NCBI GenBank assembly: GCA_902475535.1
Contig: CABRZR010000001.1
Coordinates: 92,677-156,676, forward strand
Length of the DNA: 64,000 nucleotides
Direction of reading: 5' to 3'
From: an uncultured Coriobacteriia bacterium
GTDB taxonomy: Bacteria; Actinomycetota; Coriobacteriia; Coriobacteriales; QAMH01
Shown one piece after another: positions 1,076 through 56,462 of this stretch. The position numbers and the translations under genes were made by a program. The number at the start of each line of letters is the position of its first letter. Position 1 is the first letter of the stretch. The notes beneath the pieces were generated by a model, which searched no databases, was not told the origin of the DNA, and was given only the letters and a program-made list of their open reading frames with translations.

Positions 1076-1151
<76 letters not shown>

Positions 1152-8870: not shown

Positions 8871-8892
8871 CGTGCCTGGCACACTGTCTCAT
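8863..8892. repeat. Family-A palindrome, with a degenerate left arm overlapping the nhaC stop
   Basis: GTGACATAACGTGCCTGGCACACTGTCTCA; compare the copy at 35748-35776. The TAA stop at 8868-8870 lies inside the left arm. Confidence 0.75.
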
Positions 8893-10417: not shown

Positions 10418-10447
10418 GACAAAACCCGCCGGGTCACTTTTGTCTCA
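10415..10447. repeat. Family-C palindrome
   Basis: TGAGACAAAACCCGCCGGGTCACTTTTGTCTCA. Its first TGA is the stop codon of the DltA-like gene. Confidence 0.85.
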
Positions 10448-11649: not shown

Positions 11650-11675
11650 GACAGTTGCTCTGAGCAACTGTCTCA
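11647..11675. repeat. Family-B palindrome
   Basis: TGAGACAGTTGCTC-T-GAGCAACTGTCTCA. Its first TGA is the decarboxylase stop codon. Confidence 0.9.
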
Positions 11676-12883: not shown

Positions 12884-13783
12884 ATGGGGGTCAAGACCAT
12901 GTCGATGAAGCTTGGAGGACCGATGGATAGCAAGGAGATAGAGAAGCGCAGGTTGACGCTCGATGATCACATGCACCACACGAAGGACGGCGTGGAGTTT
13001 TGGTACGCGCGAGAAGTAATGGGGGTCTTCGGATATACCCAATGGCGCAGGTTCGAGGAGACGATAAAGCGTGCCATGATATCGCTCGAGTCTAGCAAAA
13101 CCCCTGTTAGTGACCATTTTGCCGACATTGGCAAAATGGTTCCTCTCGGGAGTGGCGCGGAGCGATTAGTAAAGGACTACATGCTCACGCGCTATGCCTG
13201 CTACCTCATCGCGCAAAACGGCGATCCGCACAAGGAGGAAATAGCATTTGCTCAGAGCTACTTCGCCCTTCAAACGCGCAAGCAAGAGCTCATCGAGCAG
13301 CGCATGTTGGAGCTGCGCAGGCTTACGGAGAGAGATGCCCTTACGGAGTCCGAGAAGGTGCTTGCCGCCATAGCCTTCGAGCGAGGTGTGGATCAGCGGG
13401 GGTTCGCGACCATTAAATCAAAGGGGGACGAGGTCTTGTTCGGCGGAAACAAAACGAAGGCCATGAAGAAACGCCTTGGCGTGCCCGAGAAGAAGCCCCT
13501 TGCCGATGTTCTTCCCGACGTGACCATGGCAGCCAAGAACCTCGCGAACTCAATGACGCCACACAACGCCGAGTCGAAGGATCTGCGCGGTGTGAGGCAA
13601 ATCGGCGATGAGCACCTCCAGAACAATAAGAGCGTGCGCGGCACTCTCGTGGCGCGCGGCATCAAGCCGGAAGATTTGCCACCGGAGGAGGATGCAAAGA
13701 AGCTGAAGCGCAGGGTGGAGGCAGACGAGCGAAAGCTCAGGCAAGACGCGTCCGGGTTCGGGCCGGCGCCCCAGGACCTATAG
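12884..13783 (+). CDS. dinD: DNA-damage-inducible protein D (DinD-like)
   Basis: It is colinear with E. coli DinD as I remember it: ...WYAREVMGVFGY..., DHFADIGKMVPLGSGAERLVKDYMLTRYACYLIAQNGDP..., AQSYFALQTRKQEL. The start is uncertain (12863-12923). Confidence 0.75.
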   Translation: MGVKTMSMKLGGPMDSKEIEKRRLTLDDHMHHTKDGVEFWYAREVMGVFGYTQWRRFEETIKRAMISLESSKTPVSDHFADIGKMVPLGSGAERLVKDYMLTRYACYLIAQNGDPHKEEIAFAQSYFALQTRKQELIEQRMLELRRLTERDALTESEKVLAAIAFERGVDQRGFATIKSKGDEVLFGGNKTKAMKKRLGVPEKKPLADVLPDVTMAAKNLANSMTPHNAESKDLRGVRQIGDEHLQNNKSVRGTLVARGIKPEDLPPEEDAKKLKRRVEADERKLRQDASGFGPAPQDL

Positions 13784-14362: not shown

Positions 14363-15895
14363 GTGAGCGATTACAAAGTTGTTTTTCGAGAAGATAGTCA
14401 AAGCGATAATGCGACTGGAATAATGTGGGAGGAAAACTGCCCCATCCTAATTGAGGCAATTCAAGTATCCCGCGATGTTCAGACGGGCGAAGCATATCTC
14501 CAGCTGAAGTTTCGTAACGTTAGCAGTGAAGAGGTCTGTTCCCTTAAGGCGACGGCTATAGCAACCTTTGAAAATGGGGAGAGAGAAGACGTCGAAATAG
14601 TTCTATTGGATGCAGATGTGGAGCCAGGGAGAATCCGTAAGCCAGCTCCGATCCTTCTCAAGCGCGGGGACGTTTCCGAGGTCAGCGTAAAAATATGCTC
14701 CCTCAAGCTTCCATCTGGAGACTGGAAGTCGACGAAAAAAACGATACCTGTCCCCCGACCGAAGCAGGCTCGTCTTTCCGATAAGGCGCAAACGGAGCGC
14801 TCCCTCCAGTGGCATCCTAATCCCTCCGATTCCAAGATGCTCTACAAGGACTTCGCACTGGACAAGGAAATTGACGATCGCGAATCATGGTGGGTTTGCC
14901 CCTGTGGACAACTGAACGTCAATCGCGAGGATTGTCTGCTATGCAACACCCCAAAAACCTTCTGGCGCGAACATCCTGCTGACAACGACCGGCTTGAAAA
15001 AGAGGCGGACGAAAGAGCAGAAAAAGAGGCAGAGGAGCGAGCGCTGCAGGAAGCCGAGCAGAAGGAAAGAGCGAAAAAGAACAAGCGAATCAGGCGCATC
15101 GTGCTCACTACGAGCTTGATCGTCGTTGCCGTTATTCTTGCTATCGTGGCGGTGTTTCAAATCGTGCGTTGCGTTGTTCCCGGTGCTTATGTTGTCACCC
15201 GCTGCACGACTACGGATAGCAAAGGAAACAAGGAAACCATCGAGTACGAGCTCGATGACCGTGGGAATGTAGTAAAAGAGATAGAAGATGGGGACAAGTC
15301 TGAATGTACATATGAGCGCGATGACTACGGAGTTGTCACGAGAATGGACGATAATGAATTTGTAGTCGAGTCAGTCGATGATGGTGGGCAACCCACCAAG
15401 ATCAAGTGTTACTTTGTAGTCGAGTCAGTCGATGATGATGGACAGCCCACCAAGATCAAGTCTCAAACGAGAGAATGCAATATAGAGTGGTTTGGGGAGG
15501 GAAAAATACGCAGCATAGAATGGACCTCCTACGATGACCCAACCCGTTTCTCCAGCGATAGCTACAACGAAAACGGAGAGCTCCTAGCTTCAGATTATGG
15601 CCATTCTGATCACACTGTTGATCACGATAGCTATTCGTATGAATATGACTCAAGTGGGCGCGTAATAGCCGATACAGAAACCGGGGAATACGATTATCAG
15701 GGCGTGCCGCATTCCTATGACATCACGACAAAGTATACCTACGACAATCACGGCAACGTGATTAGGGCAGAGTCAGAACGCGGCACGAGTGTTACCGAAT
15801 GGGAATACACCTACGTAATGAACCCGTCTCCCGCCGCAATGGTGAAAAGCAGGTGTTTCCTGGGACAGGAGAGGCTCCTATCACCTCCGTTTTAG
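14363..15895 (+). CDS. Zinc-ribbon single-pass membrane protein with a YD/RHS-like repeat ectodomain, paralog of 18088..19683
   Basis: The N-terminal domain of about 130 aa is alignable with 18088 (MSDYKVVFRED / MSEYKVIFRAD). A WWVCPCGQLNVNREDCLLC zinc ribbon, an E/K/R coiled segment and a TM helix follow. YD-type repeats include YEYDSSGRVIAD and YTYDNHGNVIRAE. Confidence 0.65.
   Translation: MSDYKVVFREDSQSDNATGIMWEENCPILIEAIQVSRDVQTGEAYLQLKFRNVSSEEVCSLKATAIATFENGEREDVEIVLLDADVEPGRIRKPAPILLKRGDVSEVSVKICSLKLPSGDWKSTKKTIPVPRPKQARLSDKAQTERSLQWHPNPSDSKMLYKDFALDKEIDDRESWWVCPCGQLNVNREDCLLCNTPKTFWREHPADNDRLEKEADERAEKEAEERALQEAEQKERAKKNKRIRRIVLTTSLIVVAVILAIVAVFQIVRCVVPGAYVVTRCTTTDSKGNKETIEYELDDRGNVVKEIEDGDKSECTYERDDYGVVTRMDDNEFVVESVDDGGQPTKIKCYFVVESVDDDGQPTKIKSQTRECNIEWFGEGKIRSIEWTSYDDPTRFSSDSYNENGELLASDYGHSDHTVDHDSYSYEYDSSGRVIADTETGEYDYQGVPHSYDITTKYTYDNHGNVIRAESERGTSVTEWEYTYVMNPSPAAMVKSRCFLGQERLLSPPF
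15359..15470 (+). repeat. Tandem duplication of about 54-57 bp inside CDS 14363..15895
   Basis: TTTGTAGTCGAGTCAGTCGATGATGGTGGGCAACCCACCAAGATCAAG is repeated immediately with a few changes. The protein reads FVVESVDDGGQPTKIK / FVVESVDDDGQPTKIK. Confidence 0.9.
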
Positions 15896-15984
15896 CGAAG
15901 TACATAACGACCCATCTCCTTCGTCCATGTCGGTGATGATGTAGCGGACGCTTTTGTCCAGCCCCGCCGCTTGCCGCCGCGAAA

Positions 15985-19757: not shown

Positions 19758-20015
19758 CCCTGTGTCCATCTCGCTACCCATACGTCCTAGAACTCTATAT
19801 ACTTGCCGTAGTACCCGCCCTATCGAAAGGCATCACAATGGCTCGGCTATCGTTTTGCATGGACGAAGAGAGCGCGGCTTGCCCGGGCGAAGACGCTGCC
19901 GGATGGGAAAACGGCTGGCCGCCGGGTTTCTTCGACTTGTATGGCAGCAGTCCGGATTTCCCCGAGGCCGAAGATCTCGAGCTTGCTCCCATCGGCTGCC
20001 TCGGCCCCTAAACCC

Positions 20016-20972
20016 CTACCGCACGCCCGCGATCACCACGTACCGCGTGCTCTTGCCGAAGACCAGCTCGTCACCGGGCTTGATAGCCACGGGCTCCCCC
20101 GTCCAGCCGCCCCGTTCGTCAGCCGGCGGCTCCACCACGACCTCGGAGCGGTCTGCGCCACTCACCAGCACGGTGCCGTTCGTCGATCCGGTGCCCTTGA
20201 CGTACCACTCGCCCGCGTTGTCGTGCCAGATGCGCGCATGATGGCGCGAGACGTCGGCCGCCACGTCGCTCAGGGAATCCTTCCCCGTCGCAAAGGCGCC
20301 CACCTCGATCTCGCTGTTCTCGCTGGGATCAAGCCAATGGGGCGACCCCATCACGTACCCATCCATCACGCGCAAGAGCCCCAGGGTCACGGACCTCTCC
20401 GGCACGTCCCAGTCGCGCACCTTCTTGGAATGCGGCGTGACAAGCGGCGTCGCCACCGGGCTTCCGTGGATTTCCTCGGCAAAGGCAAAGGCGCGGGTCG
20501 TTGCCTCGGCCACGCTAGCACTCAACGCCGCCGTCACAAAGAGCACCATGGCGATCTCGACGCGCTCCTCGACTCTAAATTCGCCGTTGTCGGACAGGCG
20601 GGCGAGCATGTTGAGGTATGGGGCGGTGTTTTGCCCGCGGTGGCTCAGGGCCGTCACCATCTCGCGTCCCGCCGTCCCCGCTATCATCGTCATGATCGCC
20701 TGGTTGCTCATGCGCTTCTTGAGGCGCGCGACGATGCGCATGGCGCATTTCTCGCAGTCGATGAAGTAGTCGCTTTTCACGGATTCCACCGGGGCGTGGA
20801 CGAGATAGCGCGAGATCCACGTCCGGTCGTTTACCCGGCTTATGGGACTCGTCCCACCCGTCAGCGGCTTTTCCGAGAGGATGAGCGTGGCCAGGTCCTT
20901 GTAGCTGATATGACCGTGCTTCTTCAGGATGGAAAACAATGCTCCCAGCGGGGTTGACGGGGTCTTTGCCAT
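20016..20972 (-). CDS. FHA-domain protein with an uncharacterised N-terminal domain of about 230 aa (copy 1)
   Basis: The C-terminal FHA signature is DVSRHHARIWHD...GSTNGTVLV...IKPGDELVFG. I do not recognise the N-terminal domain. The gene starts 15 nt after the upstream kinase gene ends. Confidence 0.75.
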   Translation of the reverse strand: MAKTPSTPLGALFSILKKHGHISYKDLATLILSEKPLTGGTSPISRVNDRTWISRYLVHAPVESVKSDYFIDCEKCAMRIVARLKKRMSNQAIMTMIAGTAGREMVTALSHRGQNTAPYLNMLARLSDNGEFRVEERVEIAMVLFVTAALSASVAEATTRAFAFAEEIHGSPVATPLVTPHSKKVRDWDVPERSVTLGLLRVMDGYVMGSPHWLDPSENSEIEVGAFATGKDSLSDVAADVSRHHARIWHDNAGEWYVKGTGSTNGTVLVSGADRSEVVVEPPADERGGWTGEPVAIKPGDELVFGKSTRYVVIAGVR

Positions 20973-22502: not shown

Positions 22503-22552
22503 CGCGAGGTCAGCCGAGGGTTGAGGGCGCGCTTCCCTAGCCGTCGGCTCCT

Positions 22553-23533
22553 CTATCGCACGCCCGCGATCACCACGTATCGCGTGCTCTTGCCGAACAC
22601 GAGCACGTCGCCGGGCTTGATCACCACGGGCGTGCCCTCCCATCCCCCTCGCTCGTCAGCCGGCGGCTCCACCACGACCTCGCGACGGTCCGCGCCGCTG
22701 ATGAGCACGGTTCCGTTCTTCGACCCCATCCCCTCGACGTACCACTCGCCCGCGTCGTCGTGCCAGATGCGCGCATGGTGCCCCGAGACGTCGCTCTCGA
22801 CATCGGTAATGTCGCCCGGTCCCGTCGCAAAGGCGCCCACCTCGCATTGCTCTGCGAGCTCGGCATCGAGCCAGTGCGGCGATCCCATCACGTAGCCGTC
22901 CATCACGCGCAAGAGCCCCAGGTCCGTCATTTGCTCGTCGATGTGGCATCGCGCCTCAACGTCTTCCGCGTCCGGGGAGCATGGCGTGATGAGCGGCGTC
23001 ACCTTCGATGACCCGTGGATTTCGTTGGTGAAGTCGAGCGCGCAAGCCGTCGCCTTCGCGACATCGGCGCTCAGGGCGGCCGTCACGAAGAGGACCATGG
23101 CGATCTCCACGTGCTCCTCGGATCCGGATTCGTCCCCTCCGTTCAGCCTCGCGAGCATGTTGAGATAGGGAGTGGTGTCCTGCCCGACCTCTTCCAGGGC
23201 GATGACCAGCTCCTTTCCGGGTTCTCCTGCGACCATCTGCATGATTTCGCGGTTTCCCAGCGTGCTGCCCCTGCGCTTCTTGAGACGGGCGATGATGCGC
23301 AGGGCGCACTTTTCGTAGCTCACGAAGTACTCGTCCTTCACGGCCTCGATCGGTGCATGCACGAGGTAGCGCGAAACCCAGGTCCGGTCGTTCACACGGC
23401 TTGCGGGACTGACGCCTCCTGCTAATGGCTTTTCCGAGAGGATAAGCGAGGCCAGCTCCTTGTAGCTCACCTTTCCATATTTCTTCAGGATGGAGAACAG
23501 GGCTCCCAGCGGAGTCAATGTGGTTCTTGCCAC
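22553..23533 (-). CDS. FHA-domain protein with an uncharacterised N-terminal domain (copy 2)
   Basis: Colinear paralog of 20016..20972 (MARTTLTPLGALFSILKKYGKVSYKELASLILSEKPL...; FHA region DVSGHHARIWHD...GSKNGTVLI). The 3-prime end is near-identical to copy 1 at the DNA level. Confidence 0.75.
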   Translation of the reverse strand: MARTTLTPLGALFSILKKYGKVSYKELASLILSEKPLAGGVSPASRVNDRTWVSRYLVHAPIEAVKDEYFVSYEKCALRIIARLKKRRGSTLGNREIMQMVAGEPGKELVIALEEVGQDTTPYLNMLARLNGGDESGSEEHVEIAMVLFVTAALSADVAKATACALDFTNEIHGSSKVTPLITPCSPDAEDVEARCHIDEQMTDLGLLRVMDGYVMGSPHWLDAELAEQCEVGAFATGPGDITDVESDVSGHHARIWHDDAGEWYVEGMGSKNGTVLISGADRREVVVEPPADERGGWEGTPVVIKPGDVLVFGKSTRYVVIAGVR

Positions 23534-26772: not shown

Positions 26773-26781
26773 AATGAAACA

Positions 26782-26865
26782 GAGACAGCGTGCCCGGCAC
26801 CGTGTCTCAAAACGAAGTCAAAACAGAAGAAATGCCGATGATTTGAGACACGGTGCCAGGCACGG
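26782..26865. repeat. Inverted pair of family-A palindromes (second copy truncated)
   Basis: GAGACAGCGTGCCCGGCACCGTGTCTCA (26782-26809), a 34-bp spacer, then TGAGACACGGTGCCAGGCACGG (26844-26865). The second copy is the reverse complement of the first. Confidence 0.85.
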
Positions 26866-33245: not shown

Positions 33246-33274
33246 TGAGACAGTTGCTCAGAGCAACTGTCTCA
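33246..33274. repeat. Family-B palindrome between the convergent ahcY and hypB genes
   Basis: TGAGACAGTTGCTC-A-GAGCAACTGTCTCA. Its right-hand TCA is the hypB stop codon on the minus strand. Confidence 0.9.
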
Positions 33275-33922
33275 TTTTTCGATTTGCTCGGAGAGCCAGC
33301 CAGCCCACTCGTCAACGCCGTCGCCCTTGGTTGCGGCGATGGCGAAACTCGGTGCCGTGGGATTGAGACGCGCGATGTGTTCGTCGAAGAGCGTCTTGTC
33401 AAAGGTGAAAGCTGGCATCACGTCAATCTTGTTGAGGATGATGGCGTCTGCCACTTGGAACATTCCCGGGTATTTGAGCGGCTTGTCGTCACCTTCGGGC
33501 ACGGAGAGAATCATCATCTTGATGTCCTCGCCTAGGTAGAAATCCGCAGGACACACGAGATTGCCGACGTTCTCGATGAAGATAAGGTCGATGTTGTCGA
33601 GGTCGAGCACATCGAGTGCGCGGCGCAGCATGTCGCTTTCCAGGTGACAGGCGCCAGCCGTGTTGATCTGCACGGCGGGGATTCCCATGGCCTTGATGGT
33701 CTGCGAGTCGACGTCGCTCGCGATATCGCCCTCGATGACGGCGATGTTGTACTTGTCGCGCAGCGCGTTGATGGTTGCCACGATGGTCGACGTCTTGCCC
33801 GATCCGGGGCTTGCCAGCACGTTGACCATGTAGACGCCCTTTTCGTCGAGCAGGGCGCGGTTTGCCGCAGCTCCCTCGTCGTTCTTGTTCAGGATCTTCG
33901 TTTCCAGGTCGATGTGAGCCAT
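33272..33922 (-). CDS. hypB: Hydrogenase nickel-incorporation GTPase HypB
   Basis: P-loop region VLASPGSGKTSTIVATINAL, then AVIEGDIASDVD, CHLESDM and LIFIENVGNLVCPA. The start was chosen at MAHIDLE (33922). Confidence 0.9.
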   Translation of the reverse strand: MAHIDLETKILNKNDEGAAANRALLDEKGVYMVNVLASPGSGKTSTIVATINALRDKYNIAVIEGDIASDVDSQTIKAMGIPAVQINTAGACHLESDMLRRALDVLDLDNIDLIFIENVGNLVCPADFYLGEDIKMMILSVPEGDDKPLKYPGMFQVADAIILNKIDVMPAFTFDKTLFDEHIARLNPTAPSFAIAATKGDGVDEWAGWLSEQIEK

Positions 33923-33976
33923 GTCATCCTTCTCTCTCGACGTGTCGGGGGGTCTGACCCCGTGACACATTGGCCC

Positions 33977-34348
33977 CTACGCGGGGTCGTCCTCGTCGTC
34001 GGGTGTCTCGATTTCCATGGACGCGACTTCGAGTTCGCGACCCGCTATGAGCATGGTCGCCGCGGAGTCGCAGGCGGGACAGTGGTTGTGAAAGCGGTCG
34101 TGTTCGAACTCGTTACCGCAATCGAGGCATTTCGATCGCGGACTCACGAAGTCCATCACGAGCACGCAGCCGTCGAGCAACGGGTCATCTTCGGAAAGCG
34201 CCTCGAAGGCAAACTCCATCGCTTCGGGTACGACCATCGTCATCTCGCCAATCGTGAGCTTGATGTTTGTGATCTTTGTCGCACCGTTTTGGCGCGCGAC
34301 GGGAACGACCGAATCGAATATCCCCTGGACGAGCGAAAGTTCGTGCAT
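33977..34348 (-). CDS. hypA: Hydrogenase maturation nickel metallochaperone HypA
   Basis: The MHELSL N-terminus is the Ni site. The zinc site is CLDCG...CPAC. Confidence 0.9.
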   Translation of the reverse strand: MHELSLVQGIFDSVVPVARQNGATKITNIKLTIGEMTMVVPEAMEFAFEALSEDDPLLDGCVLVMDFVSPRSKCLDCGNEFEHDRFHNHCPACDSAATMLIAGRELEVASMEIETPDDEDDPA

Positions 34349-35088
34349 TATGCAGCCATCTCCGCTTCTTCCTCGGCGCGCTGGCGCTTGATTCTACGCG
34401 ACAGCGCAATGCGCGCGGCGGCGAGGGACACCTCGTAGAGCGCGAGAAGCGCGGCGAACATGATGCCCATCGTCACGGGAGAGGCGTCCGGAGTGACGAC
34501 GGCGGCGATTACGAGCAGGCCAACGTAGATGCCACGCCAACTCGCACGCATCTTCTTGTACGGCACGATGTTGAACAGGATGAGGAAGAACACCACAAGC
34601 GGCAGCTCGAACGCAAGGCCAAAGGCAAGCTCGAACAGGATGATGTAGTGCAGGTAGTCGGTTGCCTGGGGCAGAATCTGGCCGATCGACATGCTTTCGT
34701 TCGTGAGAAACTGGAACGCCGGATTCAGGCAGAAGCAATAGCAGAAGACCATGCCGAGCACGTAGAGCGCGACGGCAACGAAGAACGTCGGCAGCACGTA
34801 GCGGCGCTCGTTGGGACGCAACGCCGGCAGGAAGAACGCGAGCAGCTCCCAGAAGATGAGCGGGCTGCACACGAGGACGGACATGAAGAGGGCAACGCGA
34901 AACTTCAGCGAGAAGCCTTCGAAAGCGCCGGTCACATAGACTTCCTGCACGTAATCGCTCACGGGAAGGATGAGGAAGTCGATGAGGTAGGGCGCGAGGA
35001 GGTACATGAAGCAAACCGTAACGGCCAGCGCCACAACGATTATGACGATGCGGCGGCGTAACTCGCCGATATGGTCCATGAGCGGCAT
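34348..35088 (-). CDS. tatC: Twin-arginine translocase subunit TatC
   Basis: MPLMDHIGELRRRIVIIVVALAVTV... has 6 TM helices typical of TatC. The internal ATG at 35088 was chosen as the start. Its stop overlaps the hypA ATG (TAATG). Confidence 0.88.
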   Translation of the reverse strand: MPLMDHIGELRRRIVIIVVALAVTVCFMYLLAPYLIDFLILPVSDYVQEVYVTGAFEGFSLKFRVALFMSVLVCSPLIFWELLAFFLPALRPNERRYVLPTFFVAVALYVLGMVFCYCFCLNPAFQFLTNESMSIGQILPQATDYLHYIILFELAFGLAFELPLVVFFLILFNIVPYKKMRASWRGIYVGLLVIAAVVTPDASPVTMGIMFAALLALYEVSLAAARIALSRRIKRQRAEEEAEMAA

Positions 35089-35110
35089 GCGAGCGGGTCC
35101 GATGGGCACG

Positions 35111-35671
35111 TCACTCACCGCCCTTCTCGTCGTCAAGATCGTACAGGCTCGCAGCCATGCTCTTCTTCTTGACGGTGCCGCTTGCCTCGGGAATGGGCTT
35201 GCCCTCGGGCTGCGCTGCGGGCGCGTCATCGAGGACGGACGCGAACGGGTCGTCGGCAACGGGTGCCGGAGCGGCTTGCTTTGCCGCCGGAGCAGGGGGC
35301 TCGCCAGGAACGCCGCCGGGGATGGCAGCGCCGGGCTTGGTCGCGGGAGAACCAGTCGAGCTGCCGAACATGTCCTTGAACGGGTCGGTGAACATGTTCT
35401 TCGTCTCGTTGAGGGTATCGTTGATGGCGGAGATGTCCTCCTGGATGGGCTTGGTCGACTCTTCGACCTGATCCTTATAGGGGGCAATGGCCTCCTGGAA
35501 GGGATCGGCGACCTCTTCCTTGAACTTCTTGTTGGCCGCCTCGGAGGCGTTTCTGAACTGCCTGATCGCCCGTCCTACGGTGCGCCCCATCTGGGGCAGC
35601 TTCTCCGGTCCGAAGATGAGGAAACCGAAGAACAGGATAATCACTAGCTCCGTGCCACTAATTCCGAACAC
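35111..35671 (-). CDS. tatA: Twin-arginine translocase TatA/E with a long Ala/Pro-rich tail
   Basis: A GTG start gives MFGISGTELVIILFFGFLIFGPEKLPQMGRTVGRAIRQFR, the canonical TatA TM helix plus amphipathic helix. At 186 aa it is much longer than usual. Confidence 0.8.
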   Translation of the reverse strand: MFGISGTELVIILFFGFLIFGPEKLPQMGRTVGRAIRQFRNASEAANKKFKEEVADPFQEAIAPYKDQVEESTKPIQEDISAINDTLNETKNMFTDPFKDMFGSSTGSPATKPGAAIPGGVPGEPPAPAAKQAAPAPVADDPFASVLDDAPAAQPEGKPIPEASGTVKKKSMAASLYDLDDEKGGE

Positions 35672-35747
35672 GAAAACATCCTTTTCTAATAACGTTCGAT
35701 TTCCCTGCAAGCTCGCTACTTTACCACATGCGGGGCGGAGGAAGCGG

Positions 35748-35836
35748 TGAGACAACGTGCCTGGCACACTGTCTCATATCGCAGACATTTTATTGATTCT
35801 GGCTATCATTTGAGACAGTGTGCCAGGCACGTCTCA
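35748..35836. repeat. Inverted pair of family-A palindromes
   Basis: TGAGACAACGTGCCTGGCACACTGTCTCA (35748-35776), a 34-bp spacer, then TGAGACAGTGTGCCAGGCACGTCTCA (35811-35836). The second copy is the reverse complement of the first with a 3-nt deletion. Its last TCA is the mtnA stop. Confidence 0.9.
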
Positions 35837-36997
35837 CTCGCCTGCGAACTCGATGCCCGTTTCGGTGATGACGCCGGTGATGAGCTCGTTGGGAGTGATG
35901 TCGAAAGCGGGATTGAAGACATCGCATTCGCTCGGCGCAATGGGAAGCCATTGATGCCCGTAGGGCATGCAGCGCACTTCGGCCTCGTCGCGTTGCTCGA
36001 TGACGACCTCATCGCCTGTCACGAGCGACTTGTCGAAGGTCGAGTGCGGCGCGGCGACAAAGAACGGCACGCTGTGATAGCTCGAGACAACCGCGAGCGG
36101 ATAGGTTCCGATCTTGTTTGCCACGTCGCCGTTAGCGCACACGCGGTCGGCACCGACGATGACGGCGTCCACGAGCCCCTGGCCCATGATGGATCCGGCC
36201 ATGTTGTCGCAGATGAGCGTATAGGGTACGCCCGCTTGCTCAAGCTCCCACGCGGTAAGGCGCGATCCCTGCTCGACGGGGCGTGTCTCGTCGACCCAGA
36301 CCTTCTCGATGTCGCCGTTCTCGAAGGCGTGGTAGATGATTGACGTCGCCGTGCCCCACGCGGCTGTTGCGAGCGCGCCGGCGTTACAGTGCGTCTCGAT
36401 GCGCAGGGGACGGCCCAGACGCTGGGCAAGCGTGGAGATGATGACAGCGCCGTTCTCGCCGATGAGCTTGCATGAGTAGATTTCGTCCTCCATGAGCTGG
36501 CAGGCTTGCTCCTCGAGGTCTTCGGTGATCTTGTCGACGCTGCCGCCCTGGTAAGCGGCCATGCGCGCCGGTGCTACAAGCTCGTTGATCGCCCAGGCGA
36601 GGTTGACCGCCGTCGGACGCACCGCCGCGATTTCGCGGCCGCGTTGCTCGAGCTTGCTCGCGAATACCGTGACAGAATCGACATCGCTCTTGGGGTTGGC
36701 CTGGCGCTTGGCCTCGCGAATGACAGGCCACTCGTTTTTGGCCCAGAGCACGAGGGCGAACGCGCCGGCAATGCCGATGGCCGGGGCACCGCGTACGGCA
36801 AGCTCCTCGATTGCATCACAGACCTGCTTCGAGGTGAAGCAGTCGATGTACTCGATCGAAAACGGAAGCAGACGCTGGTCGAGCACCGTCAATCGGGCTG
36901 CCGCATCGTCAAGATTTGCCGTGGTCAGCGCACTGGGAACCCATCCCTCGAGCGCCGGCTGCCATTTTAGGGAACGCGGAAGATTCTCTCCCACCAT
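35834..36997 (-). CDS. mtnA: S-methyl-5-thioribose-1-phosphate isomerase (eIF-2B alpha/beta/delta family)
   Basis: VRGAPAIGIAGAFAL, HCNAGALATAAWGTA, VDETRPVEQGSRLTAWEL, VGADRVCANGDVANKIGTY and AFDITPNELITGVITE are all present. The start is 36997 or 37027. Confidence 0.85.
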   Translation of the reverse strand: MVGENLPRSLKWQPALEGWVPSALTTANLDDAAARLTVLDQRLLPFSIEYIDCFTSKQVCDAIEELAVRGAPAIGIAGAFALVLWAKNEWPVIREAKRQANPKSDVDSVTVFASKLEQRGREIAAVRPTAVNLAWAINELVAPARMAAYQGGSVDKITEDLEEQACQLMEDEIYSCKLIGENGAVIISTLAQRLGRPLRIETHCNAGALATAAWGTATSIIYHAFENGDIEKVWVDETRPVEQGSRLTAWELEQAGVPYTLICDNMAGSIMGQGLVDAVIVGADRVCANGDVANKIGTYPLAVVSSYHSVPFFVAAPHSTFDKSLVTGDEVVIEQRDEAEVRCMPYGHQWLPIAPSECDVFNPAFDITPNELITGVITETGIEFAGE

Positions 36998-37101
36998 GTC
37001 TATCGCACCGCCTTTGATTAAAAACACTTAGGCGGATGATACCACCAAGCGCCCGCACGCGGCGCCTTCACGCCTCACAAGACTTTGGCTATCATGAGCG
37101 C

Positions 37102-38400
37102 ATGGATAAGAAACCAAACGCAAAGGCCTTGTTGCCCATAGCCGTCTTCCTTGTGCTGTACCTCGGATGCGGCATCTATTTCGAGTACATTGCGCCGACT
37201 GAGGGGCAGATGGGCTTCTACGTGGTGAGCGTCGTCGTGGCGTTCGTCATCGCGCTCATCGTCGCACTGTTGCAAAATCGCTCGCTCTCCTTCGACGAGA
37301 AGATTCACGTTTGCGCGCGCGGCATCGGCGATGACAACATCGTCATCATGCTCTTCATCTTCCTGATGGCCGGCGCCTTCTCGGGCATTGCGAGTGCGGC
37401 CGGAGGCGCCGAGAGCACGGCCAACCTCTTTCTCGACATACTCCCTGCCCAGGCGGCCATACCCGGACTCTTCGTCATCGCCTGTATCATCTCGCTGGCC
37501 ATGGGCACGAGCGTGGGCACCATCACGGTGTTGACGCCGATCGCGGTCACGGTTGCGCAGAGTGCTGGCTTTAACCTACCCCTGTGCGTTGGCACTGTCG
37601 TGGGTGGTGCGATGTTTGGCGATAACCTCTCCTTCATCTCGGATACCACCATCGCGGCGACCCGCACGCAGGGCGTCAACATGAAGGACAAGTTCTTCAA
37701 CAACTTCCGCATCGCCTTGCCGGCAGCGCTCATCACGCTTGGCATTCTCATTGTCATGGCGCTCATGGCCGGCACCCCGACACTCGACGATTTCGACTAC
37801 AACATCTGGCAGGCGATTCCGTACTTCGCGGTGCTTATCGCCGCATTGTGCGGCATCAACGTCTTCGTCGTGCTCGGTGGCGGCATCGTGCTCTTTGCCA
37901 TCGTGGGCGGCGCGACGGGATCGCTCGACTTCGCGACGGCGTTCTCGGCCATGGGCACGGGAACGGCTGGGATGTTCGAGACGATGATCGTCACGATTCT
38001 GGTGGCATCGATCAGCGCGCTCATGCGCGAGTATGGCGGCTTTGCCTCGGTGCTCGGCTTCATCAAGCGTCACTTCACGGGCAAGCGGGGAGGCGAGCTG
38101 GGCTGCGGTCTGCTCACGTTGCTGCTTGACGTTGCTTGCGCGAACAACACGGTCGCCATTGTCGTGGCCGGACCCATCGCCAAGCACATCGGCGAGAAAT
38201 ACGGCATCGAGCCCGTGCGAGTGGCGAGTCTCATCGACATCTTCAGTTGCATCGGCCAGGGTCTTATCCCTTATGGTGCGCAGCTGCTCGTTGCCGCGAG
38301 CCTCGCCGGCATCGCAAGCGTCGAGATCATGCCGTTTCTGTTCTACCAGTTCCTGCTGCTCGCCTGCGTGCTCATCAGCATCGCCCTCGACCGCAAATGA
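37102..38400 (+). CDS. nhaC: Na+/H+ antiporter NhaC-family transporter (second copy)
   Basis: 432-aa polytopic protein. MDKKPNAKALLPIAVFLVLYLGCGIYFEY...MLFIFLMAGAFSGIASAAGG is typical of short NhaC-family proteins. Confidence 0.78.
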   Translation: MDKKPNAKALLPIAVFLVLYLGCGIYFEYIAPTEGQMGFYVVSVVVAFVIALIVALLQNRSLSFDEKIHVCARGIGDDNIVIMLFIFLMAGAFSGIASAAGGAESTANLFLDILPAQAAIPGLFVIACIISLAMGTSVGTITVLTPIAVTVAQSAGFNLPLCVGTVVGGAMFGDNLSFISDTTIAATRTQGVNMKDKFFNNFRIALPAALITLGILIVMALMAGTPTLDDFDYNIWQAIPYFAVLIAALCGINVFVVLGGGIVLFAIVGGATGSLDFATAFSAMGTGTAGMFETMIVTILVASISALMREYGGFASVLGFIKRHFTGKRGGELGCGLLTLLLDVACANNTVAIVVAGPIAKHIGEKYGIEPVRVASLIDIFSCIGQGLIPYGAQLLVAASLAGIASVEIMPFLFYQFLLLACVLISIALDRK

Positions 38401-39338
38401 GACAGCTGTGCCCGGCACGCTGTCTCAAAAACTGGGCAAAACTACGAGAATGTCGATGATATGAGACAGCGTGCCGGGCACAGCTGTCTCATTTGTCTCA
38501 GGCGCGGCATATTGTATTTCTTCCGACACCTGTCAGGAGTTCGATTTTGCGAACCGAAAGACCTGCAGCTTTTAATGTTCTCAAGCTGGCATCACGCTCA
38601 GATTGGGGCAATCGTATGATCGCCCCAAGGGAAACGGGACTAAGGAGCGTCTGGGCGAGCTTCCGAACGTCATCATCGCTAACATAGGGTTTCTCTTCAC
38701 TGTTCGTAAGCGAACACTCGCTTTCCTGCTCCGCCTCGTGAAAAAGCCGGAAGTTTTCTCTACCTCCGAAGATGTCCAACACAAAATCCACTTCGCATAA
38801 TGAAGGTAACCCAACATATTCGTGATAGCTTGACCACTTATAGGTTTCCATAGGAGCCAATCCACCCTTTTCAGGATTTTTGTGAATGTAACGCACGACC
38901 GTCAGCAGATAGGATTCGTCGTTAATGGGCTCGCTCTTGAACCGATCCTGGAACAAATGTCCGACATGTCCCGTTTTGGCATTGAACCGACGTGCGTAGA
39001 CACTGCAAACTCTATGCATGCCCCTCGACAAGCTCTCTTTATCTCCTCGAACAAGCAAGTGAAAGTGGTTTCCCATTAAGCACCACGCGTAGAGATCGAG
39101 ATGGGCGTCTACTAAGCAATCCTGGAGCTTGTATAGGAAAAACTGACGGTCATTATCATCTTCGAATATCAGTTGCCTTCCGTTTCCTCGCGACATGACA
39201 TGGTAAATATCCCCGACGCTTTCTTTCCGAAATCTACTCATTTTGTTCTCCTTTCAGGTGCCCGTGCTAGGCACCTTGTCTCACATCATCGCCACTTCCT
39301 TTACTTTGTCCTCCTTTTGAGACAGCGTGCCAGGCACG
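38398..39338. mobile_element. REPtron-like unit: a RayT-type transposase gene flanked on both sides by pairs of family-A palindromes
   Basis: The left pair, 38398-38427 and 38462-38491, are exact reverse complements of each other. The right pair, 39258-39292 and 39318-39338, is degenerate but has similar spacing. The enclosed gene is an HUH/Y1 transposase homolog. Confidence 0.75.
38498..39241 (-). CDS. IS200/IS605-family Y1 (HUH) transposase-like protein, RayT-type, with a C-terminal HTH extension
   Basis: The N-terminus is GDIYHVMSRGNGRQLIFEDDNDRQFF. The HUH motif is MGNHFHLLV, and the catalytic-Tyr region is VVRYIHKNPEKGG. The C-terminus, LSVRKIELLTGVGRNTICRA, is HTH-like. GC is visibly lower. 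Confidence 0.8.
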   Translation of the reverse strand: MSRFRKESVGDIYHVMSRGNGRQLIFEDDNDRQFFLYKLQDCLVDAHLDLYAWCLMGNHFHLLVRGDKESLSRGMHRVCSVYARRFNAKTGHVGHLFQDRFKSEPINDESYLLTVVRYIHKNPEKGGLAPMETYKWSSYHEYVGLPSLCEVDFVLDIFGGRENFRLFHEAEQESECSLTNSEEKPYVSDDDVRKLAQTLLSPVSLGAIIRLPQSERDASLRTLKAAGLSVRKIELLTGVGRNTICRA

Positions 39339-49604: not shown

Positions 49605-51806
49605 ATGGAATTGTACGCGACCTGCGGCACGGGCCTTGAGACGATTCTCGGCCAGGAGTTGCGCAGCCTTGGAATGGACGAGGTTCGCCCCCTCACGGGC
49701 GGCGTCGCGTTCTCGGCAGATCTTGAACAGGCCTATACCGCCCTGCTGTGGTCGCGTGTCGCGAGTCGTATCTTGCTGGTGCTCGAACGCGTCGAGGCAA
49801 CAGACTCCGATAGCCTCTATGCGGGCGTGCGTGACGTTGCCTGGGAGGATGTCGTTGCCCCCGGCGCGACGATTGCCGTGAATGCCCGTGGCACCAACGA
49901 CCAGCTGCGTGACACGCGCTATACAGCGCTGCGCGTGAAGGATGCCGTCTGCGACCGCTTGCGCGATGAACGCGGTGAGCGTCCCGATGTCGACGCGCAA
50001 CATCCCGACCTGCTCATTCAGGTAAACCTCCACGCCAAGCGAGCGACTGTCTACATCGATCTCTCAGGCACCTCGCTTGAGAATCGTGGGTATCGCGATG
50101 CCATGCGGAGCAGCTCGCCCTTCGTACACGAAACGCTCGCTGCCGCCATGCTTCTCGCGGCGGATTGGCCCGCGCGTGCAAAGCGTGGCGAAACACTTGT
50201 TGATAGCATGTGTGCCGCGGGCACCCTCATTATCGAAGCAGCTTTGATAGCGGGTGATGTGGCACCGGGAATCACGCGTTCTACCTGGGGATTCTCGGGA
50301 TGGTGTGGCCATGACGAAGAGTTGTGGCAGGTCATCCTCGACGCTGCTGACGCACGTGCCCAGGCAGGGGCGCGTAAGGCTGTGATATACGCGACAGACG
50401 CCCACGAGCGCGAGATAGCATGTGCACGGGCCCGAGCCAAGGCTGCGGCTATCGCTTCGCTCATCGAGTTTCTACCGGACCGAGATGCGCTCGCCAACGC
50501 CATCATGCATCGTGCCGACGCCTGGGGCCTGTTCGCGAGCTGCCTCTTCGTCAGCACGGAGTGCCTCGAGGCGACCCTGCCCGCGCGCTACGCGCAGCTC
50601 GCCGGCGAATTGCTTGACACCAAGCCGCTTGAGGCGGCCGTCATGCTCGTGGAGAGCCAAGATGCCGACGCCTATCTAGGCATGGAACGCACGCGGGGCT
50701 ATAGCTGCATGAACGGTTCCGCTCCCTGCGACATCGCGCTCTTCGACCTGCGCGGTGACGCATCCCGTGCTGCACAGGTGAGCGTGCGTGATAGGCAGCT
50801 CGCCGTCTACGACGCAAGCGCGCAGCAGTTTGCCGACCGTCTCAACAAGGTCTTCAAGCAGCGCCGCAAATGGGCGAGCAAGAACGGTATTTCGGCTTAC
50901 CGCATCTACGATGCGGATTTGCCCGATTACAACATGGCCATCGACCTCTATGAGGGAGCGGGCAAGGATGTGGGCAGGCGCCTCGTGCACGTCGCCGAGT
51001 ACGTGCCACCCAAGAACATCGATGCGACCAAGGCGGCACGGCGCATGACCGACGCCCTCAATATCGCAAGCGTTGTGTTCGGGGTGCCCGCGGATGACAT
51101 CTTCGTGAAGCGTCGCGTGCGTGCCAAGGGCGGCTCGCAATACGCGCAGCATGACCAAGATATGAGACAGCGTGCCAGGCACGTTGTCATCACGCAGGAG
51201 AATGGCCTGCTCTTCGAGGTCGATCTTGCGAGTTATCTGGATACGGGCCTCTTTCTCGACCATCGTGACACGCGCGAGCTTGTCGGCAAGCTCGCCGCGG
51301 GCAAGAGCTTCCTCAACCTCTTTGCCTACACCTGCACGGCAAGTGTCTATGCCGCTGCGCGTGGGGCGAAGTTCACGACGAGTGTGGACCTCTCGAACAC
51401 CTATCTGCAGTGGGGCGAGCGCAACATGGAGCTCAACGGCCTCATGAACGGCCATCAGGAGTTCGTGCGTGCCGATTGCGTCGAATGGGTCCAGCAAACG
51501 CGTCACACGAAAATGCGCTGGGACCTTGTCTTCGTCGATCCGCCCACCTTCTCGAACTCCGCGAAGATGCGCACGCGTGGTTGGGACGTGCAGCGCGATC
51601 ATGCCGAGCTGCTCATCGGTGTGAGTCGCCTGCTGACCCGTGGCGGTGCTGCGGTGTTCTCGTGTAATCTGCGTGGATTCAAGCTCGATCGCGAGACGAT
51701 CGAGCGTGCGGGCGTGCAGGTCGTTGACATCACCGACAAGACGATACCGTTGGATTTCGAGCGGCATGCCCAGGTCCACCATTGTTTCGTTTTGCGGAGA
51801 ATCTAG
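49605..51806 (+). CDS. rlmL: Bifunctional 23S rRNA methyltransferase RlmKL-like (THUMP plus two MTase domains)
   Basis: The N-terminus is MELYATCGTGLETILGQELRSLG...LLWSRVASRILLVL. The C-terminus, YLDTGLFLDHRDTR...FVDPPTFSNS...VQRDH, is colinear with E. coli RlmL. Confidence 0.85.
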   Translation: MELYATCGTGLETILGQELRSLGMDEVRPLTGGVAFSADLEQAYTALLWSRVASRILLVLERVEATDSDSLYAGVRDVAWEDVVAPGATIAVNARGTNDQLRDTRYTALRVKDAVCDRLRDERGERPDVDAQHPDLLIQVNLHAKRATVYIDLSGTSLENRGYRDAMRSSSPFVHETLAAAMLLAADWPARAKRGETLVDSMCAAGTLIIEAALIAGDVAPGITRSTWGFSGWCGHDEELWQVILDAADARAQAGARKAVIYATDAHEREIACARARAKAAAIASLIEFLPDRDALANAIMHRADAWGLFASCLFVSTECLEATLPARYAQLAGELLDTKPLEAAVMLVESQDADAYLGMERTRGYSCMNGSAPCDIALFDLRGDASRAAQVSVRDRQLAVYDASAQQFADRLNKVFKQRRKWASKNGISAYRIYDADLPDYNMAIDLYEGAGKDVGRRLVHVAEYVPPKNIDATKAARRMTDALNIASVVFGVPADDIFVKRRVRAKGGSQYAQHDQDMRQRARHVVITQENGLLFEVDLASYLDTGLFLDHRDTRELVGKLAAGKSFLNLFAYTCTASVYAAARGAKFTTSVDLSNTYLQWGERNMELNGLMNGHQEFVRADCVEWVQQTRHTKMRWDLVFVDPPTFSNSAKMRTRGWDVQRDHAELLIGVSRLLTRGGAAVFSCNLRGFKLDRETIERAGVQVVDITDKTIPLDFERHAQVHHCFVLRRI
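51163..51191. repeat. Family-A palindrome (slightly degenerate) in frame inside rlmL
   Basis: TGAGACAGCGTGCCAGGCACGTTGTCATCA is translated as MRQRARHVVI. It sits in the linker just before the conserved YLDTGLFLDHR block. Confidence 0.8.
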
Positions 51807-52119
51807 ACCGCGCGATTATCTGCTGCGTGATACACTAGAACCGCTCCTCCCAAGTCTGTGGTTGCGAGCTGGTAAAACAGCTCTAGTCCAAGGCAGATGC
51901 GGTCGAAAGGATCCACGTAAGCGGGCAGGGTTTCCTGCACGTGAGCATGGCGCATCTTAGGGGTAAGACGTACCGTCCGTTATGGTCACATACGGTGGCC
52001 CGGGCGAGAAAATGAGTAGTGAGATAGTATCAGGCAAAAGTTTCTGTATGCGAGTGTGGGGTCAAAAACCAGGTCAGTTGGGAGGAGCACTTTCACTGGC
52101 CCATGAAAAACGGAGCAAG

Positions 52120-54972: not shown

Positions 54973-55043
54973 CCAGACAAAAGTCGCCGGGGCATGTTTG
55001 TCTGGCTTCGAAAATGAGACAGTTGCTCAGAGCAACTGTCTCA
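54973..55043. repeat. Family-C palindrome followed by a family-B palindrome
   Basis: CCAGACAAAAGTCGCCGGGGCATGTTTGTCTGG (54973-55005) starts directly after the serC stop. TGAGACAGTTGCTCAGAGCAACTGTCTCA follows at 55015-55043. Confidence 0.9.
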
Positions 55044-56298: not shown

Positions 56299-56462
56299 TG
56301 AGACAGTTGCTCTGAGCAACTGTCTCATTTTATGCCTCTCGTCATTTCGACCGGAGGCGTGAGGCACCGGAGTGGAGAAATCCGTGATGAGATTTCTCGA
56401 CTACACTTCGTTACGCTCGAAATGACAGATAAGACAAATCCGACCCGGCGGCATCTGTCTCA
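56299..56462. repeat. Composite repeat cluster: family B, an inverted pair of family-E units, family C
   Basis: TGAGACAGTTGCTCTGAGCAACTGTCTCA lies at 56299-56327. CGTCATTTCGACCGGAGG...GGAGAAATCC and its inverse GAGATTTCTCGAC...CTCGAAATGACAG lie at 56335-56428. AAGACAAATCCGACCCGGCGGCATCTGTCTCA lies at 56431-56462. Confidence 0.85.

Follow-up and report, generated by a model that had tools for sequence, protein, structure and literature searches.

A tyrosine transposase-like gene bracketed by inverted hairpins in a Coriobacteriia genome: a probable REPtron/TIRtron-type locus

In a 64,000-nucleotide (nt) stretch of DNA from an uncultured Coriobacteriia bacterium (hereafter the window; GenBank assembly GCA_902475535.1, contig CABRZR010000001.1, positions 92,677 to 156,676), a single gene for a Y1/HUH tyrosine transposase-like protein lies between inverted copies of a hairpin-forming palindrome. 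The biology of repetitive extragenic palindromic (REP) sequences, of their hairpin-forming doublets (REPINs), and of the REP-associated tyrosine transposases (RAYTs) is known almost exclusively from work on Proteobacteria. A related arrangement, the “TIRtron”, in which RAYT-like “TIRYT” genes carry terminal inverted repeats (TIRs) in place of REPs with a GTAG tag, was described by Di Nocera, De Gregorio & Rocco in 2013 (PMC3733652), and TIRYTs have been equated with TnpA-REP subclass 2.1 by Quentin et al. in 2018 (PMC6006769). The locus in the window comprises the following features, the palindromes being given without strand.

38498 to 39241, minus strand: Y1/HUH tyrosine transposase-like gene, a 247-residue open reading frame (ORF), TIRYT / TnpA-REP subclass-2.1-like
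38394 to 38495: REPIN-like doublet 3′ of the gene, with units 38398 to 38427 and 38462 to 38491 and a 34-nt spacer at 38428 to 38461
39255 to 39338: degenerate doublet 5′ of the gene, with a unit at 39255 to 39283 (core GTGCTAGGCAC plus CTTGTCTCA), a spacer at 39284 to 39317, and a half-unit at 39318 to 39338

The gene, its protein, and the flanking hairpins

The protein carries both GNHFHLLV and RYIHKNP and matches the Pfam profile Y1_Tnp (PF01797) (50.3 bits; cut-off, 23), and no tnpB lies beside its gene, as the original prediction, made from the letters of the window, had stated. Its catalytic core spans approximately residues 10–145 and contains the HUH histidines H59 and H61, Tyr118 within RYIHKNP, and a WSSY motif at residues 136–139; H59, H61, and Y118 are invariant in an alignment of 39 homologues. 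The core is followed by a disordered linker (residues 173–183) and a C-terminal helix-turn-helix (HTH) region (residues 189–246), which folds into a small helical domain in a confident AlphaFold2 (AF2) model (predicted local distance difference test score, pLDDT, 88.7). Weak matches to HTH_7, HTH_23, HTH_38, and HTH_28 occur at the C terminus among family members, in agreement with the HTH-like segment predicted earlier, and no HTH model reaches the Pfam cut-off at the C terminus of the window protein itself. Two other assignments of this region were rejected: the matches to a ribosomal S11-like domain are subthreshold (E ~0.05) and due to a short helix, and Bac_DnaA_C, the model for a DnaA-C domain, gives no match.

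In terms of family membership, the sole real NCBIfam match of the window protein is REP_Tyr_transpos (NF047646; 64.3 bits, E = 1e-17), and the IS200 model of the same collection gives none. REP_Tyr_transpos is matched by all 39 homologues and is the top model for each (best E = 9e-21); the IS200 model is matched weakly by 28 of the 39 (best E = 7e-6). The top Protein Data Bank sequence in a search with the family profile is 4er8, the E. coli TnpA-REP, and the same structure (4ER8, TnpA-REP with a REP hairpin) is the top Foldseek match of the AF2 model (E = 5e-7, TM score 0.67, rmsd 3.3 Å), ahead of the TnpA proteins of IS608, ISDra2, and IS200. Foldseek ranks 1–26 are all TnpA-REP, IS608, ISDra2, or IS200 structures, which identifies the modeled fold as the HUH fold of TnpA proteins. 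In both sequence and modeled structure, the window enzyme is nearer to E. coli TnpA-REP than to the IS200/IS608 TnpA proteins. A canonical IS200/IS605 element, which the original prediction had also discounted, was rejected on the lack of an IS200 model match, the lack of tnpB, the single copy of the gene in the DNA sampled, and a fold nearest to TnpA-REP.

The class of the enzyme was further examined by BLASTP of the window protein against 18 published sequences (Additional file 5, PMC3733652). Identity is 35–42% to the TIRYTs (gbm 2474, dau 2153, pca 3049, and sml 4509/1152; E = 2e-31 to 1e-23) and 22–27% to the classical RAYTs (eco b228, pfs 4255, and sml 2816; E = 9e-14 to 3e-4), and the top 12 matches are all of TIRYT type (E = 2e-31 to 3e-17). 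The signatures YHVxxRGN, A(W/Y)CLMxNHxHLL, GHL(F/W)QxR(F/Y)KS, RYIxxNP, and WSS are shared with TIRYTs such as Stenotrophomonas maltophilia K279a ORFs 1152/4509, Geobacter bemidjiensis gbm 2474, and Desulforudis dau 2153. As in these TIRYTs, the protein is longer than classical RAYTs and its gene has terminal inverted repeats at its flanks; unlike in proteobacterial TIRYTs, whose tail is of a ...GRPRK type, its C terminus is a short HTH. Members of subclass 2.1 carry a C-terminal HTH, of a short HTH_23/HTH_28-like form in subgroup 2.1.2 (PMC6006769), and the window protein resembles this subgroup in its features, as a class-2 Y1 enzyme with a Y---NP signature, a serine motif after the tyrosine, and an HTH_23/HTH_28-related extension. 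BLASTP similarity, signatures, profiles, and predicted fold together assign the encoded enzyme to the TIRYT/RAYT-like class and not to the classical GTAG-type RayT proteins. The earlier description of the locus as a REP/RayT system in a Coriobacteriia-like bacterium is thus kept insofar as the locus is of REPtron type, and is corrected as to the enzyme, which belongs to the TIRYT (subclass 2.1) branch.

The doublet 3′ of the gene (the left doublet in the window) had been described as two 30-mers that are exact reverse complements of each other; this is the case, and the match extends to 34-nt arms (38394–38427 and 38462–38495) that pair without mismatch (100% complementary) and are separated by 34 nt. 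Taken alone, each arm forms a near-perfect palindrome, TGAGACAGC(T)GTGCC-N-GGCACGCTGTCTCA, in which a single T is bulged, and the extra T in one arm (TGAGACAGC-T-GTGCC versus GGCAC-GCTGTCTCA) marks its orientation, also as predicted. As single-stranded DNA (ssDNA), the doublet would form a 34-bp hairpin (calculated free energy ΔG = −46.6 kcal/mol; z = −13.6). The TGA stop codon of the adjacent nhaC gene lies within its first foot. The right doublet runs in the opposite orientation, with 76% complementarity to 38408–38481 over 74 nt. Its cores, 39264–39274 and 39327–39337, are 63 nt apart, consistent with the degenerate pair at a spacing of about 60 bp noted before, and strain HGM04055, a metagenome-assembled genome (MAG) of the same species, has an intact core (GTGCCAGGCAC; L020). 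The loops of the gene's own flanks are C/G or A/A, and the loop base (A/T) therefore gives no reading of the orientation of these units relative to the gene.

The neighbors of the Y1 gene are topA and genes for a ComF-like phosphoribosyltransferase, an NhaC antiporter, and an IF-2B-family protein. One copy of the gene was found in the 204 kb sampled (the 64-kb window and 140 kb of the conspecific MAG), and the gene context is the same at all 6 places shown of 17 protein-carrying contigs from many samples. The lower GC content that had been noted for the gene was confirmed: it is 48% GC, 11 points under the genome (window, 59%), and its GC content at third codon positions (GC3) is 52% versus 74–87% in neighboring genes. 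Carriage by plasmids or phages is close to nil: relatives occur in 27 of 72,556 plasmid records, at no more than 35% identity, and in 1 of 50,697 phage records.

Orthologues and the stem-loop ends of the wider family

The locus is syntenic in three species. Two orthologous proteins, P0005 (59% identical to the window protein) and P0002 (74%), are encoded at the same position in the order comF / gene / nhaC / IF-2B, and neighbor identity is 83–99%. Both orthologous genes retain flanking inverted hairpins, the outcome that the original prediction called for, in which the TGAGACA foot is kept and the inner stems differ. The flanks of the P0005 gene are single palindromes (TGAGACAAAAGTTCGTC-C-GACGAAC...), and those of the P0002 gene are doublets, whose inner stem is ACGTCTCC and whose spacer resembles that of the window as a related sequence. 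In the sister species, the TGA stop of the Y1 gene itself also lies within the palindrome foot (L007:10745-10747). The commonest palindrome on this sister-species contig, AATAAGACAAATTRCMC-N-GKGYAATTTGTCTTATT with the foot TAAGACA (1794-1828, 13436-13470, 15244-15278, and 15937-15977), is unlike the pair that flanks its own Y1 gene (TGAGACAAAAGTTCGTC...), and a genome can therefore hold more than one hairpin family. An empty comF/nhaC site was sought in more distant relatives, where the NhaC homologues (74–76% identical) lie in unrelated contexts and are uninformative.

The Y1 protein diverges quickly at this conserved position: the 59% identity to its syntenic orthologue is found while the adjacent topA and IF-2B-family proteins are 96–99% identical. 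GC3 of the gene is low (52–60%) in all three species (window 38498-39241; L007:10001-10747; L059:653-1396). The divergence and the low GC3 could be caused by fast coevolution with the hairpin or by repeated allele replacement.

The family as a whole is large, with 791 clusters (50% identity) at E ≤ 1e-30, and relatives are encoded at no fewer than 585 metagenome loci. The more distant relatives occupy unrelated positions in genomes of different genera. At approximately 41 of the 61 relatives' loci with both flanks available, the gene lies between inverted repeats that exceed those of all shuffles. The arms of these relatives form stem-loops in which the 11-nt loop, GGGACGGTTCT, hardly varies; GGGACAGGCAC, GGGACAGGTCA, GGGGACAGGCAC, and GGGTCAGGCAC are variants of it. 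In gene orientation, the loop motif lies 62–128 nt upstream of the start codon (most often ~65–105), and its reverse complement lies mostly within ~80 nt past the stop codon. Stem positions 2–9 are paired in 65–95% of 63 distinct elements, compared with 37–58% when the partner arms are shuffled; the observed value is reached by 0–1 of 500 shuffles, and 3–6 pair types occur per position. The stem covariation in the relatives' arms is genuine, as for a hairpin.

The architecture is shared between the family and the window, as a comparison of the L105 arm, CAGACAG-GGGGACAGGCAC-TCTGTCTG, with the window arm, GAGACAGC-GTGCCAGGCAC-GCTGTCTC, illustrates; what was the loop is now self-complementary in the window. 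Many published TIRs share the string GGGGWSAS (PMC3733652). Both arms of the window's relatives carry GGGGACAG or GGGGACGG, close to this string, whereas the window arms have only degenerate versions, TGAGACAG / GTGCCAGG, of GGGG[AT][CG]A[CG]. Stem-loop arms that keep their loop while the stems covary go beyond the TIRtron description. By its sequence, the window REP derives from the terminal hairpin typical of the TIRYT family. The original prediction that the REP is unrelated to the GTAG REPs is accordingly correct as to the GTAG tag, which is absent, and too broad in that the repeat is not unrelated to everything known.

Two further observations concern individual family loci. A 48%-identical homologue in Adlercreutzia faecimuris (L061) is flanked by inverted repeats of ~44–56 nt that consist of tandem GGGACAACG units (9880-10000 and 10772-10830) and not of a single hairpin. 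Contigs L146-L153 (917–920 nt) contain the homologous gene with ~133 nt upstream and 14 nt downstream and break at the inverted arms. Breaks exactly at the arms most likely arise because inverted ends collapse in de Bruijn graphs, and a multicopy status of the homologue P0050, suggested by many contigs of ~918 nt, was rejected as an assembly artifact.

These data bear on whether the locus is an autonomous, still-mobile element of insertion sequence (IS) type, a “TIRtron” in the active sense, whose latest insertion is the present locus and whose internal-deletion derivatives, similar to miniature inverted-repeat transposable elements, are the doublets, which would have spread solely during the active period of the element. 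The family's end hairpins sit at fairly constant positions, like defined IS ends; the gene is found at unrelated loci across genera and is 11 GC points below its genome; a patchy distribution driven by horizontal gene transfer has been inferred for these subclasses (PMC6006769); and a deletion derivative would be expected to look like the doublets, with an end, a spacer, and an end. Such an element is nevertheless hard to reconcile with a single copy in 204 kb and an unvarying context in the contigs shown, with one insertion site occupied in three species among housekeeping neighbors that are 83–99% identical, and with the virtual absence of relatives from plasmids and phages. In addition, a complete doublet stands on each flank, an arrangement of REPIN-like brackets and not of simple ends. 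We consider an element of this kind improbable.

Dispersed units, their anatomy, and their turnover

The half-site TGAGACAGCGTGCC occurs 15 times in the window (≤2 mismatches) versus 0.75 expected, and none of 100 shuffles reaches 15. The palindrome that flanks the gene, termed family A, is present as 11 units, 7 of them away from the gene at 5 loci. Five further palindromes keep the TGAGACA foot and have a different inner stem (family B, four; family C, one). The original prediction had counted nine other sites; the recurrence holds, and the count is replaced by these 7 units and 5 foot-sharing palindromes, which are distributed as follows.

724 to 752: family-A single unit, a perfect palindrome with the conserved 5′ extension GACTAGGATA (ΔG = −17.8 kcal/mol, z = −9)
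8863 to 8891: family-A single unit, one foot degenerate, overlapping a gene 3′ end
26781 to 26863: family-A doublet, units 26781 to 26809 and 26844 to 26863, 63 nt start to start, the second without its distal arm
35748 to 35836: family-A doublet between the IF-2B-family gene and tatA, units 35748 to 35776 and 35811 to 35836
51163 to 51189: family-A single unit, distal arm degenerate
11647 to 11675: family-B palindrome ATGAGACAGTTGCTC-N-GAGCAACTGTCTCAT at a gene 3′ end, with the foot TGAGACAG and another inner stem
33246 to 33274: family-B palindrome between convergent cobW and ahcY, a polymorphic site and one end of a 5.1-kb inversion
55015 to 55043: family-B palindrome
56299 to 56327: family-B palindrome
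10416 to 10446: family-C imperfect palindrome GAGACAAAACCCGCCGGGTCACTTTTGTCTC, foot as in the other families

No known RNA family in Rfam overlaps any of the palindromes. Two tRNA genes (869-942 and 1076-1148, plus strand) lie directly downstream of the 724-752 palindrome, and a raiA RNA motif (Rfam RF03072, 157 bits) lies at 51845-52086 (plus strand), downstream of the unit at 51163. Elsewhere in the window, 20013-20951 and 22550-23512 are ~75% identical to each other, as seen from secondary BLAST matches of L012, and are probably tandem paralogous genes.

Genome-wide enrichment of the palindrome, proposed earlier as a check, was evaluated by scanning one genome per species of 185,579 species with the pattern TGAGACANNGTGCCNGGCAC. 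The scan returned 50 loci, of which 24, with 40 matches, come from one MAG, Coriobacteriia bacterium HGM04055, which is 95–98% identical to the window and thus of the same species. The other Coriobacteriia matches are few and belong to the same species (98%) or to relatives at ~90–93% identity, and the rest are isolated singletons whose number is below the ~70 estimated by chance. The palindrome is confined, among these genomes, to the window species and its closest relatives. A slightly looser definition yields 40 family-A units in the HGM04055 loci (L012-L056), including 13 doublets at 63-nt spacing and 2 at 77-nt spacing. Thirteen of the 40 units fall in DNA homologous to the window, which corresponds to ~3% of the genome, as judged from a 2.04-Mb contig of a sister species; units therefore seem, tentatively, to be concentrated around the Y1 gene.

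The anatomy of the doublet was derived from an alignment of 13 examples, 11 of those with 63-nt spacing and both with 77-nt spacing. The conserved stretch runs from the center of one palindrome to the center of the next (GTGCCTGGCAC-GCTGTCTCA, a 34-nt spacer, and TGAGACAGC-GTGCCAGGCAC), and the outer arms are often unrelated sequence. The 34-nt spacer has the consensus AAAG.TGGCCAAAACTGA.A.AA.GYCGATGATA. The doublet is thus a 74-nt element with 20-nt inverted ends, and its layout matches that of a REPIN, in which two inverted REPs with a short conserved spacer form one long hairpin. The single unit, read in its “A-loop” orientation, is an oriented 30-mer, 5′-GNCNANN(A/T)T(A/T)-TGAGACAGC-GTGCCAGGCAC, with a conserved 10-nt 5′ extension (of 32 units, 28 have G at −10, 29 have C at −8, and 26 have T at −2); the opposite side of the same 32 units displays no comparable conservation. 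Units are mostly extragenic and usually lie just 3′ of stop codons, and the TGAGACA foot often supplies the TGA stop of the upstream gene (window 38398-38400, 10415-10417, and 11647-11649).

Individual repeats differ by insertion or replacement at orthologous sites, as the original prediction had anticipated for strains and relatives. At the cobW/ahcY site, the family-B palindrome of the window (33246-33274) is replaced in HGM04055, at 96–97% strain identity, by a family-A doublet (L048:1880-1975), with both flanks conserved, and sister species carry palindromes of their own. Orthologous intergenic sites were also compared between two species whose topA and IF-2B-family proteins are 96–99% identical. 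Here the hypA/cobW site shows a clean insertion versus no hairpin in the sister species, a different palindrome is substituted at the cobW/ahcY site, and the IF-2B/tatA site (35748-35836) holds a doublet in the window versus a different single palindrome in the sister species. In another sister species (NhaC 94% identical), a 5.1-kb block that matches window 33276-38397 and contains cobW-hypA-tatC-tatA-IF2B-nhaC is inverted (L159:179-5305). A 33-nt palindrome of that species' own, ATGTGTAAAAGGGCCTGACCCTTTTACACAT, is present at both inversion junctions, one of which adjoins the Y1 gene. The units are dispersed in a lineage-specific manner, and their content changes between strains and species.

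The position of the units at gene ends raises the question of whether the palindromes are simply lineage-typical intrinsic terminators or protein-binding sites whose similarity is maintained by their function, beside which the Y1 gene, with an unrelated role, lies by coincidence. Most units are just 3′ of genes and often provide the stop codon, family B has A and T runs like those of bidirectional terminators (those at 11647-11675 border the palindrome on either side), and orthologous sister-species sites hold a hairpin of similar size and other sequence. A working terminator would require neither identity of the 14-nt arms, nor conservation of a 10-nt extension on one side, nor conservation of the 34-nt spacer, and terminator function would not place inverted hairpins around the gene of the window, around its orthologues, and at about two-thirds of the distant relatives' loci (~41/61). 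The clean insertion at hypA/cobW, at a site that is hairpin-free in the sister species, is likewise not expected of a terminator, and a simple terminator scan flags no full palindrome at the locus, only the 5-bp core of the half-unit at 39326-39338. An incidental association of this sort is very improbable.

A further explanation holds that the enzyme has been fully domesticated and handles hairpins for the host, in fork or terminator maintenance or in the control of recombination or inversion, but has stopped multiplying them, so that the repeats are relics. Domestication has been argued for RAYTs (Bertels 2017, PMC5581495), and it would agree with a gene that is single-copy, syntenic, and conserved and with a repeat-bounded inversion that adjoins it. 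However, strains at 96–97% identity differ in the unit that occupies a site, and sister species show gains and replacements; these differences indicate ongoing activity and therefore count against domestication. The fast divergence of the protein (59% versus 96–99%) is also unlike that of a protein with a housekeeping role. We regard full domestication as rather unlikely.

Relation to published systems, proposed mechanism, and significance

Taken together, the data make it probable that the locus is of REPtron/TIRtron type, i.e., that one chromosomally fixed gene of the TIRYT class is bracketed by inverted copies of its cognate hairpin. As in REPtrons broadly defined (Nunvar 2010; Ton-Hoang 2012), two or more inverted repeats flank the gene, and the repeat is dispersed extragenically and specifically to the lineage. 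The arrangement is like that of the E. coli REPtron with RayT/YafM (4ER8), in which a single gene sits between inverted copies of an extragenically dispersed hairpin, and like E. coli REPs the units are oriented hairpins with a conserved 5′ single-stranded extension. Unlike E. coli RayT, to which it is 21–25% identical, the window protein has an extra C-terminal HTH domain, and unlike E. coli REPs the units have no GTAG tag and far fewer copies. With the REPINs of Pseudomonas fluorescens SBW25 (Bertels & Rainey 2011, PMC3116915), the window system shares an inverted pair of units with a short conserved spacer that forms one long hairpin, the doublet as the repeated unit, doublets that bracket the gene, and syntenic orthologues that would fit vertical inheritance. 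It differs from SBW25 in the enzyme subclass and the repeat sequence, in having tens and not hundreds of copies, and in the apparent clustering of units near the gene. The HUH/Y1 fold and, by analogy, a hairpin-recognizing ssDNA chemistry are common to the TnpA proteins of IS200/IS605 elements (IS608 and ISDra2), whereas these fit the predicted structure less well, and the window locus has no tnpB and, in the DNA sampled, not the multiple copies of such an element. Its ends are inverted repeats of each other, unlike the distinct left and right ends of IS200/IS605.

With respect to the TIRtrons, some species have moderately abundant TIR-derived families, including self-complementary ones and dimers (PMC3733652), which recalls the present case; the host here is a Coriobacteriia actinobacterium, of a phylum that is not on that paper's list for tagged REPs. 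No REP-like sequences were found near subclass 2.1 genes in the published survey, and only IS200-type genes (subclass 1.1) were reported for Actinobacteridae (PMC6006769). The window gene, flanked by hairpins that are dispersed ~40 times, is unlike subclass 2.1 as published in this respect. In the literature searched, we found no paper that describes such a system in Coriobacteriia. The classical GTAG and CGTC REP families were both rejected as the source of the repeat, as neither tag is present at the foot of the unit; the CGTC-like string of the relatives (GGGACGG) sits in the loop, and CGTC REPs were found to have no associated transposases (PMC3733652).

Several points weigh against reading the locus as a REPtron/TIRtron-type system. 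The units lack the GTAG tag and carry GNCNANN(A/T)T(A/T)-TGAGACAG instead; their copy number is modest, at ~40 per ~2-Mb genome versus hundreds in classical REP hosts; and many of them resemble ordinary terminators. Families B and C have only the foot in common with the flanks of the gene. The arms are not repeated within 6 kb on either side of the gene at most other family loci, and dispersal is therefore a trait of the window lineage and not of the whole family. The score of the window protein against NF047646 (64.3 bits) falls short of the 80-bit cut-off of this RAYT equivalog model, and the gene's low GC3, like its 59% identity to the orthologue, could reflect a horizontal transfer that replaced the allele and not quiet vertical descent. 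Finally, the proposed link between enzyme and repeats is one of association.

A mechanism that accommodates these observations can be proposed for the REPtron/TIRtron-type system. In this lineage, which is Eggerthellaceae-like, the ~11-nt family loop has probably mutated to the self-complementary GTGCC-N-GGCAC, which turned the family hairpin into a perfect 29-nt palindrome. The palindrome would then have multiplied in extragenic DNA as the 30-nt oriented unit and the 74-nt REPIN-like doublet. The enzyme may recognize the folded hairpin on ssDNA, for example at replication forks, and Tyr118 would cut beside the hairpin while His59 and His61 of the HUH motif hold the metal, the strands being rejoined afterward, as by TnpA-REP and the TnpA of IS608. 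Such cutting and rejoining could copy, move, or replace units, mostly at gene 3′ ends, where many may double as terminators. The C-terminal HTH might provide additional DNA docking or autoregulation.

A more specific proposal can be put forward only tentatively, with somewhat more doubt than confidence: the locus would provide the first description of a REPIN/RAYT-like system from Gram-positive bacteria (Coriobacteriia), one run by a subclass-2.1 enzyme, in which the TIRs are ssDNA stem-loops recognized by their loops, enzyme and hairpin coevolve quickly so that each species has its own inner stem, and the units stay local, swap at terminator sites, and drive inversions.

The kind of system is already known, and what is new is the lineage, in which none had been described. 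Two points are modestly new, namely that the inverted ends of the family are hairpins and that a subclass described as lacking REPs shows REPIN-like amplification. The same arrangement, one fixed gene with a population of hairpins, would thereby be extended to a Gram-positive lineage, the Coriobacteriia that are abundant in the human gut. Only one TnpA-Y1 subclass is larger than subclass 2.1 (TIRYT), for which the DNA partner has so far been unclear; concrete candidate ssDNA substrates are now at hand in the 30-nt oriented unit and the 74-nt doublet, and the conserved GGGACGGTTCT loop with its covarying stems suggests how TIRYT enzymes may find their ends. The repeats mark strain differences and an inversion, and they are relevant to MAG assembly, to strain typing, and to the genome plasticity of gut Actinobacteria.

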